From: a phage
Sequence record: PZ179880.1
Direction: 5' to 3' (one strand)
Length of the DNA: 64,000 nucleotides
Position 1 is the first letter of the stretch. Every line of letters begins with the position of its first letter. A program made the translations under genes and the position numbers. The notes beneath the pieces are model-generated. The model was not told the DNA's origin. It saw only the letters and a program-made list of their open reading frames with translations, and searched no databases. Shown in pieces: positions 46,030 to 52,450 of this stretch.

Positions 46030-46105
46030 TGGTCGAGGCAGTAGGGATCGAACCTACGACCTAGGACTTAGAAGGTCCTTGCTCTTCCTTCTGAGCTATG
46101 CCCCG
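46030..46105 (-). tRNA. tRNA-Arg (anticodon TCT), CCA encoded
   Basis: Hand-folded cloverleaf: acceptor CGGGGCA/TGCCTCG, anticodon loop CTTCTAA, T-loop TTCGATC. Confidence 0.85.
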
Positions 46106-46109
46106 TAAT

Positions 46110-46184
46110 TGGGTGACCGATGGGAGTCGAACCCATGACTACGAGAATCACAATCTCGAGTTCTACCAACTGAACTACGGCCAC
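46110..46184 (-). tRNA. tRNA-His (anticodon GTG) candidate
   Basis: Acceptor GTGGCCG/CGGTCAC, D-stem GTTC/GAAC, anticodon loop TTGTGAT; no G at -1, so His identity is tentative. Confidence 0.65.
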
Positions 46185-46298
46185 ATTAATACCTACTCCA
46201 ACAATCAAGATGTCTTCACACGAAATTAAGAGAAGAGTGATCAGTTCAACCCCTATAATCGCGTCAAGTAGGTATTAATGTGACAGTTGTCACAAATT
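46185..46298 (-). ncRNA. Structured spacer inside the tRNA cluster (candidate small RNA or processing element)
   Basis: Flanking inverted repeat TAATACCTACT / AGTAGGTATTA and palindrome TGTGACAGTTGTCACA; no ORF. Confidence 0.3.
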
Positions 46299-46374
46299 TG
46301 GCGGACGTGATAGGATTCGAACCTATAACCAATCGCTTAACAGGCGATCGCTCTGCCATTGAGCTACACATCCA
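46299..46374 (-). tRNA. tRNA-Asn (anticodon GTT), CCA encoded
   Basis: Acceptor GGATGTG/CACGTCC, anticodon loop CTGTTAA, T-loop TTCGAAT. Confidence 0.8.
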
Positions 46375-46378
46375 AATT

Positions 46379-46465
46379 GGTGGGGAGTGGTGGAGTCGAA
46401 CCACCCGAGTCGCAATGACAATGGATTTACAGTCCACACCGCTACCTCTACGGGATAACTCCCCC
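46379..46465 (-). tRNA. tRNA-Tyr (anticodon GTA), type II with long variable arm
   Basis: 87 nt; acceptor GGGGAGT/ACTCCCC, anticodon loop CTGTAAA, CCA encoded. Confidence 0.8.
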
Positions 46466-46475
46466 AAATTAATTT

Positions 46476-46550
46476 GGTGGCCCTGGGTGGAATTGAACCA
46501 CCATCTGGCGATTATGAGTCGCTTGCTTGAACCTTCCAGCTACAGGGCCT
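46476..46550 (-). tRNA. tRNA with CAT anticodon (Ile2-type by T4 position, or Met)
   Basis: Acceptor GGCCCTG/CAGGGCC, anticodon loop CTCATAA; 1 nt from tRNA-Thr (dimeric precursor). Confidence 0.8.
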
Positions 46551-46551
46551 T

Positions 46552-46627
46552 GGTGCTGATTGACGGAATCGAACCGCCGACCTTCTCATTACAAGTGAGT
46601 TGCTCTACCTACTGAGCTAAATCAGCA
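46552..46627 (-). tRNA. tRNA-Thr (anticodon TGT)
   Basis: Acceptor GCTGATT/AATCAGC, anticodon loop CTTGTAA, T-loop TTCGATT. Confidence 0.85.
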
Positions 46628-46632
46628 AAACT

Positions 46633-46722
46633 GGCGGAGGCGATAGGATTTGAACCTATGAGTCGCCGGAGCGACTGCCGGTTTTCAAGACCGGTGCATT
46701 AAACCACTCCGCCACGCCTCCA
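46633..46722 (-). tRNA. tRNA-Ser (anticodon TGA), type II
   Basis: 90 nt; acceptor GGAGGCG/CGCCTCC, anticodon loop CTTGAAA, long variable arm. Confidence 0.85.
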
Positions 46723-46724
46723 GT

Positions 46725-46798
46725 CTCCGTGGCAGGATTTGAACCTACGACATTCTGCTCCCAAAGCAGACGCTCTACCAAACTGAGCTACACGGAGT
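46725..46798 (-). tRNA. tRNA-Pro (anticodon TGG), CCA not encoded
   Basis: Acceptor CTCCGTG/CACGGAG, anticodon loop TTTGGGA; 2 nt from tRNA-Ser (dimeric precursor). Confidence 0.85.
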
Positions 46799-46807
46799 AA
46801 ATTAAAT

Positions 46808-46882
<75 letters not shown>

Positions 46883-46887
46883 AATTT

Positions 46888-46974
46888 GGTGCGAGAAGTG
46901 GGACTCGAACCCACAAGGAAATCATTCCGCAGCATTTTAAGTGCTGTGCCTTTACCAATTTGGCCATTCTCGCG
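46888..46974 (-). tRNA. tRNA-Leu (anticodon TAA), type II
   Basis: 87 nt; acceptor GCGAGAA/TTCTCGC, anticodon loop CTTAAAA. Confidence 0.85.
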
Positions 46975-46975
46975 C

Positions 46976-47048
46976 TGGGAATAAAGGACTCGAACCTTTG
47001 CATCCTGGAATCAAAATCCAGTGCCTTACCAACTTGGCTAATTCCCAA
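46976..47048 (-). tRNA. tRNA-Gln (anticodon TTG), CCA not encoded
   Basis: Acceptor TGGGAAT/ATTCCCA, anticodon loop TTTTGAT; 1 nt from tRNA-Leu (dimeric precursor). Confidence 0.85.
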
Positions 47049-48076: not shown

Positions 48077-48310
48077 TTATTTTTTACGAAAAATTGATTT
48101 ATTTTCTGCTGCCCATTTTTCAATAACTGCAGCAGGACCAGTAACAACAATTTTATCACCGTAATCTTCTGCGGCGAGTTGACCGAAATTATCTAATGCA
48201 TCACGAAGAACTCCATGAGGCATTTCACCCATTTTATCTTTCTTGCCAGTGTAAATAAACTCAACTTTTACATCAGCAGTTTCAGCAATAAATTCTTGGT
48301 AAGTTTTCAT
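48077..48310 (-). CDS. Internal head protein with capsid-targeting leader, at the ipI locus
   Basis: 77 aa; N-terminus MKTYQEFIAE is the T4 capsid-targeting consensus; early promoter upstream. Confidence 0.7.
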   Translation of the reverse strand: MKTYQEFIAETADVKVEFIYTGKKDKMGEMPHGVLRDALDNFGQLAAEDYGDKIVVTGPAAVIEKWAAENKSIFRKK

Positions 48311-49067: not shown

Positions 49068-49068
<1 letters not shown>

Positions 49069-49793
49069 TATAGTACCTTTAGTGTATTTTTAATTTTAGA
49101 AAAAAGTTCTTCAAGAGAACCATCGTTTGTAATTACTAAATCGCCATCACGAATTGGCAATCCAGCTTCTGTAATATGTGTATCATTGGATTTTTGACCA
49201 GGACGAACTACATGAATTACTGTAGCACCCATCGCCCTAGCCGCATCCATTTCATGATCTTGACGGGTATCAGGAACGATATAATAATCATAACCTGAGT
49301 TAAATTTATCAAGATAATCTAAAGCAAATAATTTTACCCAATACATGCGGTCGAAGTTATTAACAATCAAATCCGTACCTAGGGCTTGCATCAGACGACG
49401 GACTGACCATTGATCTTCAATATTATTTATAACGTCAATAATCTTGTTACATGCTACGGAATCAACTGATTCTTGTCCTTCGTCCTCAAAAACACACACA
49501 CCCTTAATTGGGCTTTTACCGTTAAGATAGCAAAATGCTTGTTCCATAATCGTAATTACTTCTGATTTAGTCAGATTTAAATTAGTCTCACGATCATAGT
49601 CAATTCCTTCAAACTCTTTGCGAGTTAAGCAAGGATAGTCAGTGTTTGTTGCAAATACACCCCACGCATAAGCCAATGCATCCTTAATAGGACCAGCAAG
49701 TTGATATTTAACTGCAGAATAATTATTCATGATAAAATCTGCAGTAGTATCTTTTCCACTACGCTTTACACCACTTAAAAAGATTAGTTTCAT
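49068..49793 (-). CDS. 1: Deoxynucleoside monophosphate kinase
   Basis: 241 aa; P-loop GVKRSGKDT. Confidence 0.93.
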
Positions 49794-49842
49794 ATGTTTC
49801 TCCTCAAATTTAGTTAAGATTATAACACATGAAACTGAAGCA

Positions 49843-50373
49843 TTAAACTTCTGCTATAATTTTGCCATCTTTTTCTACTTGAAAATACGTATAAGGAATC
49901 GTTGCTGTACATACTAAAGCTGGGTCTGAATCTTCAGTGTAGCTAAATTCTACTTCAGACAGGTCAGAAACCCAAGGCTTATAAAAATTTATTGACATCA
50001 CGATTTCAGTTTTACTATTATCTAAAATGTAAAGCGTAATGTATTCAGGACCTGTTTTTTGGGCAGTATTTTCGCCTGTAAGATAGTTACTAGTTCCTAG
50101 CATCCATTCATACATTCCTATCCACGACTTAAGTTCTTCATCAACTATAAATCTCACGATGAGTGGATCGTACTCAAATGTAACACCTGGACGTTGTGCT
50201 CGGCCCAGTCCAAACGGCCCAGTCACGGTATCAGTAACAGGTATCCTAATTCCTGGAATAGGAACTGACTGAGCATTTAAAGTAAAAGCAGATGTAGTAT
50301 TACTATGCGGTATTGATACTACAAAGTTAGTTGTATTTGCTTGGTTAAAAATTTGTTGTAGTGCTTGCGACAT
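49843..50373 (-). CDS. 3: Tail completion / sheath stabiliser gp3
   Basis: Start trimmed to MSQALQQIFNQ (176 aa as in T4); GAGGAA ribosome-binding site. Confidence 0.8.
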   Translation of the reverse strand: MSQALQQIFNQANTTNFVVSIPHSNTTSAFTLNAQSVPIPGIRIPVTDTVTGPFGLGRAQRPGVTFEYDPLIVRFIVDEELKSWIGMYEWMLGTSNYLTGENTAQKTGPEYITLYILDNSKTEIVMSINFYKPWVSDLSEVEFSYTEDSDPALVCTATIPYTYFQVEKDGKIIAEV

Positions 50374-50479
50374 ATATTCCTCATAATGCTTTATAAATGT
50401 TGGTGGTATAATGGGTCTAAGTCCCTTCCATTCAATTTCAATTAGAACAAACAATAGAAAAGAATGGAAGATAATAGAA

Positions 50480-51154
50480 TTAATTTATTAGACTTCTTAA
50501 ACGAGCAGAAGTCATAAATGGAAATTTTTCTAAAGTTGGCTTTCGCCAATATCTTGGATGACAAGTTGATTTAAAATCAAGAACAATTTTCTTTGCTTCA
50601 TCAATAGTGCTAACTCCAAAGTTATCTAACATTATTTTCTTTTCTTTTTCCCACCGTTTATTAGCTAAAGCAGATTGAAGCTTTTTGTTTTTAAATGTAT
50701 CATTTTTTCTAGAATGAGTTGTGCCTTGTGTCGGACTCCATCCTCTTCCTAAAATAAATCCCTCAGGAATTATATCTCCATCATGCAATTTTATACATCT
50801 TTTACCATTATTATAATATTTTCGTCCAGTTTGTGTATTTGAAATATTATTTGCATGTTTTCTTTTTAACCAACCATAAACTTTATTATTTCTCCTAACA
50901 TATTTAGTTGAAACCGTCATTTTTATGGCCGCATAAGATAATTTTAAAGAATTTGGGTGTATTTTTACTAATAGTTGATGTGCAACATAATGCTCTTCTG
51001 GAGTTAAATCAACCAAGTTAGAAGCATCATTACTACCGCCTAAACATTTCGGAATAATATGATGTCTTTCTTTATATCCAGTAAGGGCTCTATTGCGAGC
51101 CCTATCAATTAGTGAATTATAAATTTTTTCATAATTCATCGTACATTGCTCCAA
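50480..51154 (-). CDS. HNH homing endonuclease (free-standing)
   Basis: 224 aa; motif [36 protein letters not shown]; inserted between genes 3 and 2. Confidence 0.8.
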
Positions 51155-51963
51155 ACTTTGTTTGCAGAGAAACGTTTTCCTTTGGAGTAGAAGCTTTGGA
51201 GTGGCATTAACACAACGTTCGCCCAGTCTTTCGGGGCGATTTCAACAAGGCTACCCATGATATTACCAGGTATATATGCCTTAATCATTTGATCTGCACC
51301 CCTAAATCCTTTCACTTGACTCCAATCAATTTTTAATTTCGTTTTATTAGTAATAGTAGGTGTATTTGAATATTGCTTTAAAAGCTCTTCTAGAAACTGT
51401 TGACGAGCTTTAGGTGGAATATAGTGCAAGTTCAATCCATACATTAAATTATGTTTACCTAAACCGAGGTAAATTATCAAAGGAAATTTATCCCAATAAG
51501 GAAGAGTTTCCTTGTGTTTAGCATCGTAAGCAAAAGCATATATTCGTCCCGGCTGCGGGCGAACAACTTTATGTCCTTTTACCTGCTTAATAGTTTCAGC
51601 AAACCACTTTCTGGTTTTATTATTAATTGCTGCACCTTCATTACGAATTTTATCACGCAACGTTTGCCTGAATGAATTTATCATAAGCAGTTGTCTTTCT
51701 TGCTTATTGAGTTTATTCATTGGTTTTGATTCAAGCTTTTGAATCTTTTCAGCTGTTTTAATTCCTGAAGCATATTTTGACATTGCCGAAGTAAACGTAG
51801 AATATTTAATTCCTTTTTCTTCAGCAAATTGCTTTCCTGTCATTCCTTTTGCTTTGGCCTTTTTGTATTCAAGACCTATCTGAATCCATTTCTTTTCGTT
51901 TAATGATTGCTTAACCTTTGGAACTTGGGGAGTGCTTTCATTAATTATTTGAAAAATAGCCAT
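51136..51963 (-). CDS. 2: DNA end-protector protein gp2
   Basis: 275 aa basic protein at the T4 gene 2 position. Confidence 0.8.
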
Positions 51964-52415
51964 TATGCCCCCTTAAAGCCAAGAGCTCGTAATCCATCTT
52001 CTGTTAAAATTCTAAATTTTATTCCACGCTTTTCAGCTAAAGATTGTGCTGCTTTCCATTTGTCAGTATTAACGGAATATGTATAGATTTCATTCATAAA
52101 TCTTTTCTTCGCTGCAGTTGTTAGATGTGCTGGTTTAACTGGTGGTTGTGTTTCTTTTTTAGGTTTTATTTCAATAAAAAATTCTTGTCCAGAAGAATCT
52201 TTCATCCAAATATCCATGAAGTATCTACGTTTTTTCCCTTCTGCATTACAAAAATAAGGAATTACTGCTGTTTCACTACCCCATGCAATAATTTCTGGAT
52301 TTTTATCTAACCATTCAAAAAAGAATTTTTCCCAATTTGATCTATACGTAATTTTTTTAGGGTCACCTCTATATTTTGATATATTTTTAGGAACCCATTT
52401 TCCAGAATATGCCAT
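51963..52415 (-). CDS. 4: Head completion protein gp4
   Basis: 150 aa as in T4; late promoter upstream. Confidence 0.85.
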
Positions 52416-52426
52416 TGGATTCTCCT

Positions 52427-52450
52427 TATAAATAGATAATATATTTATAA
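52427..52450. promoter_or_regulatory. Divergent late promoters between gene 4 (minus) and gene 53 (plus)
   Basis: TATAAATA at 52427-52434 on plus; TATTTATA at 52442-52449 on plus (TATAAATA on minus). Confidence 0.7.

Follow-up and report, generated by a model that had tools for sequence, protein, structure and literature searches.

The ORF at the 3' end of gene 2 in the window, i.e. the whole 64,000-nucleotide stretch of phage DNA analysed here (PZ179880.1), is best explained as a free-standing Mob-type HNH homing endonuclease gene (HEG) that is resident at this position in T4-like phages, and we consider this explanation, including the homing mechanism, to be quite probable. For the further reading, that the HEG belongs to a Mob lineage specific for gene 2, whose recognition or nicking site is the conserved block of gene 2 codons for MPLQQFVS, and that this block was rewritten at each invasion, independently in at least four genera of the Straboviridae, the chances appeared evenly balanced. 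Free-standing homing endonuclease genes abound in T4-like phages, and as a feature the HEG is routine; the added value of the analysis is a precise and replicated target prediction in gene 2. An initial annotation made from the letters of the DNA had read the ORF as a free-standing HNH homing endonuclease, and this was borne out by the invariant HNH residues, the homology to MobB and MobE and the sporadic distribution.

The ORF extends over positions 50480-51154 of the minus strand and comprises 224 aa when read from a TTG at 51154. As all full-length homologues (24/24) begin with MNY and the counterpart in phage RB32, RB32ORF146c, is annotated with 660 nt, the start was assigned to the ATG at 51139-51137, giving 219 aa and a stop codon (Table 1). 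Judged from these comparisons, the ATG is almost certainly the true start, and the TTG adds five spurious codons. The initial annotation was correct about the ORF and the HNH motif in it, but not about the start. The match of the HEG to PHROG 655 ('homing endonuclease') was far beyond chance. The gene is more AT-rich than its surroundings (29.8% versus 34.9% G+C), and no paralogues of it were found elsewhere within the 64-kb window. The gene order 1-3-(HEG)-2-4-53-5 confirmed that a T4-like gene block is interrupted; genes 53 and 5 lie on the plus strand and diverge from the 4-2-HEG-3 block. T4 has no ORF between genes 3 and 2, as had been stated in the initial annotation, and in T4 (NC_000866, 75955-76060) as well as T2 only a spacer of 106 nt is present there.

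Table 1. Features of the HEG and of the surrounding genes in the window
Feature	Position	Strand	Basis or remark
Gene 1	49068-49793	-	followed by 57A and 57B
Gene 3 (tail completion/sheath stabiliser, 176 aa)	49843-50373	-	ORF and profile matches, comparison with T4
Gene 2-3 spacer, 106 nt	50374-50479	-	retained intact from the HEG-less arrangement
HEG CDS	50480-51139	-	PHROG 655 (E = 9e-59); RB32ORF146c; homologues all start with MNY
Vestige of the old gene 2 terminus, TCTAATAAATTAA (T4: TCAAATATCTAA)	50480-50492	-	now the last HEG codons and stop
C-terminal helical domain, residues 152-218	50486-50686	-	common only to gene-2-linked homologues
HNH beta-beta-alpha core, residues 24-60 (H26, H27, N41, H50, H54)	50960-51070	-	invariant columns, AF2 model, profile alignment
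Gene 2 (DNA end protector, 275 aa; presumed target gene)	51136-51963	-	PHROG 429
Cassette-borne replacement of the gene 2 end	51136-51150	-	S N V R stop; T4: S N I stop
HEG-linked substitution patch in gene 2	51184-51208	-	10/25 nt differ from T4; QQFVS to QSFYS
Gene 4	51963-52415	-	
T4 late-promoter box TATAAATA upstream of gene 4	52442-52449	-	likely source of the 4-2-HEG-3 transcript

Alignment of the interval between genes 3 and 2 with that of T4 defined the boundaries of the insertion. The cassette was inserted after the Trp codon of gene 2 (51153-51151), four codons before the T4 stop, with a net gain of 659 nt. The initial annotation had placed the insertion between genes 3 and 2, which is the right region, but the insertion is not strictly intergenic. 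On the coding strand, T4 reads AAA GTC TGG, followed by TCA AAT ATC TAA and then TTCTATT. In the window, AAA GTT TGG is followed by the cassette, which begins with AGC AAT GTA CGA TGA ATT and ends with AGA AG, and then by T CTA ATA AAT TAA and TTCTATT. Gene 2 keeps a complete reading frame, and its four-codon end is replaced by AGC AAT GTA CGA TGA. In the sequence ATGA, the start codon of the HEG overlaps the stop of this new gene 2 end. The Ser codon AGC of the replacement also gives rise to a GGAG Shine-Dalgarno sequence at 51149-51152, with 9 nt between it and the start codon. The old gene 2 terminus is slightly diverged in the window, while phage Manna keeps the T4-like form. It was re-used as the stop of the endonuclease also in Lazarusvirus, and the alignment of a pair of Serratia phages was similar. 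The frame of gene 3 remains open over the 81 nt that precede its ATG, and ORF calling extends it to a TTG at 50454 (50374-50454).

The residues H26, H27, C32, G35, N41, E49, H50 and H54 were invariant in 25 full-length relatives with 44-64% identity, so that none of the catalytic His and Asn residues is missing, and the residues were also invariant in a wider set of 42 relatives. The spacing of the HNH residues appears to fit the pattern of colicin E9 (H102/H103, N118, H127 and H131). A phmmer search of the PDB with the single HEG sequence gave no match, and a profile of the 25 homologues was needed. With this profile, the HH/N/H/H residues were aligned residue for residue with the solved HNH domain of EcoKMcrA (6ghc, E 0.0076), and also with that of a group II intron maturase (6me0, E 0.0094). 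The Pfam models HNH (PF01844) and HNH_5 (PF14279) reached 16.5 and 17.8 bits, respectively, and both scores are below the gathering cut-offs of 21.4 and 27.5. Short, divergent HNH motifs are a known weakness of the Pfam HNH models. PF01844 was matched by 29 of the 42 family members at E <= 0.01. Because of the residue-level evidence, the assignment to the HNH (His-Me finger, beta-beta-alpha-metal) nuclease superfamily was kept despite the Pfam scores, and the HEG protein is a predicted nuclease of this superfamily. The HNH domain seen in the initial annotation was thus recovered at the profile level with 6ghc and 6me0, with Pfam HNH below its cut-off.

The predicted structure (AF2, pLDDT 89.7) contains strands at residues 24-27 and 42-45 and a helix at 47-60, and the pLDDT of this core block was 95-98. 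Beyond the core the model shows a helix, a beta hairpin (residues 106-119), a disordered linker at about residues 140-150 and a four-helix C-terminal domain (152-218). A Foldseek search with the model gave Cas8f-HNH domains as the best, weak match (E 0.45, probability 0.89). In tblastn searches, residues 1-114 were 45.2% identical to T4 mobB (E 1e-22) and residues 1-111 were 45.5% identical to RB6 mobE (E 1e-20). The T4 record contains five places that match the N-terminal domain, as expected for mobA-E. Mobs at other loci matched only residues 1 to about 115, and full-length matches occurred only adjoining gene 2. Nothing scored above the cut-off in Pfam and NCBIfam, and no NUMOD or other DNA-binding family was found in the C-terminal half; some relatives in the family of the N-terminal domain carry NUMOD3 or NUMOD-like motifs of the I-HmuI kind. 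The C-terminal domain is presumed to be the DNA-binding and specificity module. The T4 Mob proteins combine a conserved N-terminal HNH domain with a site-specific C-terminal domain (PMC2790892, PMC2988022), and the architecture of the HEG family matches theirs because it joins a homologous N-terminal HNH domain to a C-terminal domain of its own.

The distribution of the HEG was determined by megablast with positions 49800-52000 of the window as the query, and records with at least 80% query coverage were taken as carriers. Among 514 matching phage records, 37 (about 7%) fell into this class, with 97-99% identity, and the distribution was sporadic. The carriers included RB32, RB33, HY03, vB_EcoM_112, fPS-2 and EC.W14-2. 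In 38 GenBank records the same gene (97-100% identical) occupies this site, and the HEG protein of EC.W14-2 was 100% identical. The HEG is absent from T4, T2 and RB3, RB5, RB6, RB7, RB9, RB10, RB27, RB55 and RB59. The contrast with the T-even reference genomes that had been implied in the initial annotation therefore holds for T4 and T2, but not for RB32 and RB33, both standard references of the RB series, which carry the ORF at the same site. As the ORF of RB32 was annotated in 2006, the feature is not new; it is known and has been in GenBank since that year. The 2006 annotation of RB32ORF146c reads 'similar to mobB; not conserved from T4 position', the first part of which is accounted for by T4 mobB being the best T4 match of the N-terminal domain. 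The endonucleases of RB32 figure in a tree that has been published for homing endonucleases, the Mob type among them (PMC3468402), and a literature search found no paper in which this enzyme was characterised or tested.

The same figures bear on the proposal that the HEG is a domesticated HNH nuclease that aids gp4 and gp2 in DNA end processing or packaging, or a weapon against competitors that does not home. The gene does sit inside the late morphogenesis operon 4-2-3, and in other phages, e.g. those of the HK97 type, terminases are aided by similarly built HNH proteins (PMC10448857). However, about 93% of the close relatives, T4 and T2 among them, lack the gene and are fully viable, and several copies are disrupted, with the phage not lost. 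T4-type phages, moreover, package their DNA by a headful mechanism. We regard such a function as extremely improbable. A role as a packaging helper of terminase, as for HK97 gp74, was rejected in view of this absence and disruption and because the HEG is not adjacent to the terminase genes.

In Gaprivervirus P479, Lazarusvirus Konradin, two Serratia phages (SP1 and 4S) and five contigs from metagenomes, a homologue with 44-64% identity followed immediately on the 3' side of gene 2. Site fidelity was counted for lineages with upstream sequence, and a tenth contig (L069) is outside this count. In one metagenome contig (L064, 92-2221) the order was gp2, a HEG homologue of 46% identity and gp4. 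As the HEG adjoins gene 2 even where the downstream neighbour is gene 4, the lineage is tied to gene 2 and not to gene 3. Because few close relatives turned up when IMG/VR was scanned with gp2, population counts were based on the GenBank phage collection. Between genes 4 and 2, another homing endonuclease gene was observed in P479 (L004:533-1180) and Konradin (L005:518-1168), so that gene 2 is bracketed by two such genes in these phages. At three IMG/VR loci (L012, L013 and L018) a homologue of the HNH N-terminal domain was located just upstream of gene 2.

The HEG has the same orientation as genes 4, 2 and 3. On the minus strand, the next late box after that upstream of gene 4 is located at 49424-49431, inside gene 1, and no exact T4 late-promoter box was found inside the HEG or the 2-3 spacer. 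A sigma-70 scan was not above the shuffled expectation. No terminator-like site was detected in the HEG, and the terminator scan was likewise not above the shuffled expectation. As the cassette has neither a late box of its own nor a terminator, it appears to lie within the late 4-2-3 message. Coupling of the translation of mobE to the upstream nrdA was proposed (PMC2988022), and by analogy the HEG is probably translated by coupling to gene 2.

The gene 2 region adjoining the cassette carried a patch of substitutions (Table 1). In this region 10 of 35 nt differed from T4, compared to a background of 1.5%, and elsewhere only 0-4 differences were found per 60 nt. The flanks of the window differed from those of the HEG-less phages W143 and P8 at 18-19 of 1236 nt (1.5%) and from those of HEG-plus RB32 at 29 of 1236 nt (2.3%). 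The HEG itself differed from that of RB32 at only 5 of 657 nt (4 synonymous changes and 1 non-synonymous change), and no differences at all were present in the patch (0/35) and the adjoining 64 nt. As the HEG and the patch are near-identical while the flanks differ more, a recent transfer of both as one unit is indicated. A T4-type patch was present in none of the 38 records with the gene 2/HEG junction. Among HEG-less records, about 450 had the T4-type patch and about 14 records, all of Tequatrovirus, had the HEG-type patch. The latter, with a QSFYS patch and a T4-type terminus, were T4_ev151 (L059) and about 13 others, including EC128, FL12, SG1 and vB_SsoM_113; they are either former carriers or naturally resistant empty sites.

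To locate the divergence, mismatches between HEG-plus alleles and the nearest available HEG-minus allele were counted per 30 nt, with positions given relative to the Trp codon of gene 2. In Tequatrovirus 0, 10 and 1 mismatches were found in the bins -90 to -61, -60 to -31 and -30 to -1, respectively. The corresponding values were 3, 8 and 4 for the Serratia phages, 0, 12 and 10 for Lazarusvirus and 1, 11 and 2 for Gaprivervirus. The peak was thus in the same bin (-60 to -31), which holds the codons for MPLQQFVS, in four genera or lineages. In Lazarusvirus, an identity of 98-100% stopped abruptly at exactly these codons. The Val residue of QQFVS was present in 0 of 10 HEG-plus alleles and in 6 of 9 HEG-minus lineages (Fisher about 0.003, ignoring phylogeny). 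Exceptions occurred on both sides: the HEG-plus metagenome alleles L068 and L070 encode QQFLS and QQFMS, peptides that are also found in some HEG-minus alleles, and HEG-type peptides were present in HEG-minus L009 and the T4_ev151 group. The remark in the initial annotation that such endonucleases mark recombination hot spots gained support from this replicated breakpoint signature in gene 2.

Judged from these alignments, the MPLQQFVS block is likely to be the recognition or nicking region that has been made immune in the carriers, or at least the proximal boundary of co-conversion. The enzyme of the same Mob-type gene may, however, cut elsewhere, be it in gene 3, in the spacer or at a more distant upstream point of gene 2, and the patch would then be co-converted donor DNA or a linked gp2 polymorphism. 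Within a genus the association of patch and HEG is confounded by their tight linkage: with only about 45 nt separating patch and cassette, linkage alone explains the 0 of 38 in Tequatrovirus. Cutting elsewhere would also agree with the patches in HEG-less records, with the QQF[LM]S peptides of L068 and L070 and with the patch DNA of Tequatrovirus (CAAAGCTTC), which resembles that of HEG-plus L065 and L066, as expected of an imported donor. The divergence peak in the same 30-nt bin in four genera and the abrupt end of identity at the MPLQQFVS codons in Lazarusvirus speak against it. Moreover, between patch and cassette Tequatrovirus and Gaprivervirus were near-identical to the HEG-less allele, which would not be predicted by a simple co-conversion tract from a distant cut to the cassette. 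A cut elsewhere was therefore considered possible, but rather doubtful. If the MPLQQFVS block is the site, its rewriting would include amino-acid changes (Q to S or N, and V to Y, Q or F) in the essential virion protein gp2, and the cassette would always rebuild the gene 2 terminus and turn the old one into its own stop region; in this part of the reading we have a middling degree of confidence.

A different role of the patch would be in an mRNA hairpin that masks the HEG's ribosome-binding site, as in the mobE hairpin of Aeh1, and not in immunity. CUCCAAA in the patch is complementary to UUUGGAG of the Shine-Dalgarno region, and the two are paired in the minimum-free-energy fold. The complementarity extends over 10 bp with one bulge (51148-51158 with 51185-51199, minus strand). 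In Konradin and SP1, a complementarity of 7-8 bp was present between CUUCCAG(A) and (U)UUGGAAG or CUGGAAG. The fold z-score was only -1.34, however, and in comparison with synonymous recodings p was about 0.10 for the window, 0.48 for P479 and 0.74 for Konradin. In addition, the register of the 5' arm differed between lineages, and most other HEG-plus alleles had no such complementarity. The hairpin was rejected as unsupported, since in all three controls it was no better than synonymous recodings, and we hold it to be very unlikely.

Taking the MPLQQFVS block as the target, homing would proceed as follows. The HEG would be transcribed late from the gene 4 promoter and translated at a low level through coupling to the termination of gene 2, aided by the GGAG that the cassette brings along. 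In a mixed infection, the protein would bind the HEG-less gene 2 allele and nick or cut it at or near MPLQQFVS, about 50-70 nt upstream of where the cassette is inserted. With the HEG-plus genome as the template, recombinational repair would then copy the cassette together with the adjacent patch into the recipient, and because of the patch the enzyme would act poorly on the new host allele. Degenerate copies would represent the phase of decay that is usual in a homing cycle. Precedents are the nicking activities of MobA and MobE and, at mobE, the overlap of stop and start codons (PMC2988022, PMC2790892).

Degenerate copies were found in several phages. Shigella phage CT01 (L003:2181-2354) has an ORF of only 57 aa, in which the first 14 codons are joined to the last 43 or so by an internal deletion, and it retains the HEG-type gene 2 end and the patch. 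In the Escherichia phages FL23 and FL44 (L071:681-1339) a 1-nt deletion after an A-run, corresponding to position 50960 of the window, splits the HEG past the HNH helix into two CDSs, both annotated as 'homing endonuclease'. The 3' end of the HEG in Salmonella phage Manna (L072:44-1339) is TCAAATATCTAA, as in T4 gene 2, and is 1 nt shorter. Because of this T4-like junction the Manna HEG lacks a stop, and its reading frame continues across the 106-nt spacer into that of gene 3, which is possible since the gene 3 frame is open upstream of its ATG. The two are annotated as a single CDS of 431 aa. This could be a real HEG-gp3 fusion, a recombinant junction or a sequencing error. Together with the patch-bearing empty sites, these decay forms fit the cycle of invasion, degeneration and loss of homing endonuclease genes.

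As some copies are clearly decaying, the copy in the window could be inactive, though intact. Carried further, the HEG would be an intact-looking but immobile relic, kept since it is harmless and since an imprecise deletion would harm the gene 2 terminus or the expression of gene 3. The decayed copies at the same site (CT01, FL23/FL44 and Manna) are consistent with this, as is the functional gene 2 end held by the cassette, which favours its retention. Three of the five T4 Mobs, MobB, MobC and MobD, are likewise without demonstrated activity (PMC2988022). Against a relic, the ORF was intact in most of the 38 records, the changes relative to RB32 were largely synonymous, and the catalytic residues and the C-terminal domain were conserved down to 44% identity. 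The near-identity of HEG and patch in phages with more divergent flanks also points to recent transfer. We consider the relic unlikely and the mobile Mob-type gene the better account of the window copy.

Among known systems, the RB32ORF146c group (RB33, HY03, vB_EcoM_112, fPS-2 and EC.W14-2) has the same gene at the same site, with 97.8-100% identity of the protein and 97-99% of the DNA over 49800-52000, and the RB32 copy shows no substantial difference (5 nt) from that of the window. T4 MobE resembles the HEG in that an N-terminal HNH domain, homologous to that of the HEG (about 110 aa with 45% identity, as matched with RB6 mobE), is joined to a separate C-terminal domain. Like the HEG, mobE is a promoterless cassette in a host operon with a start codon that overlaps the stop of the upstream gene, and its target is thought to lie in a neighbouring conserved gene, with a polymorphic block beside a conserved one. 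Such a bipartite site in nrdB was proposed (PMC2790892), and the MPLQQFVS block would match it. MobE differs from the HEG in its location between nrdA and nrdB, its C-terminal domain and its target, which is nrdB and not gene 2. Its operon is early/middle, while that of the HEG is late, and the HEG has no internal terminator-like site. The nick of MobE was mapped in vivo, whereas the site of the HEG is inferred only. T4 MobB has the nuclease domain in common with the HEG and differs in its C-terminal half and in its location, between alpha-gt and alpha-gt.2; its activity and target have not been established (PMC2988022). Enzymes of the I-HmuI/I-TevIII type also join an HNH module to an extended DNA-binding tail, but the HEG is not in an intron. 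I-HmuI was not recovered by sequence or fold searches with the HEG, and the HEG protein had no NUMOD match.

To our knowledge, no T4 Mob enzyme has been reconstituted in vitro. Activity has been demonstrated only for MobA and MobE among the T4 Mobs (PMC2988022). The predicted gene 2 site of about 25 nt comes with natural alleles expected to be sensitive and resistant and, if the prediction is true, would be a ready substrate with which a Mob other than MobE could for the first time be dissected biochemically. Throughout a virus family, the protein sequence of gp2 would then be shaped directly by a selfish element. The intact, frameshifted, stop-less and deleted copies and the patch-bearing empty sites show the cycle of invasion, decay and loss within one genus. 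The HEG also marks a point of exchange of gene 2 and its neighbours between co-infecting phages, which bears on mosaicism and on the exclusion of markers in therapeutic phage cocktails.

Two other regions of the window were also noted. Eleven tRNA genes (Arg, His, Asn, Tyr, Met/Ile-CAU, Thr, Ser, Pro, Gly, Leu and Gln) are located on the minus strand at 46030-47047. T4 has 8 tRNAs, with segB between those for Arg and Ile (PMC2988022). In the window the tRNA genes for His, Asn and Tyr fill the segB interval of T4 and leave no room for segB. At 48077-48310 on the minus strand, an ORF of 77 aa beginning with MKTYQEFIAE occupies the position of T4 ipI (95 aa) and RB32 Ip5, which is a variable internal-protein slot.
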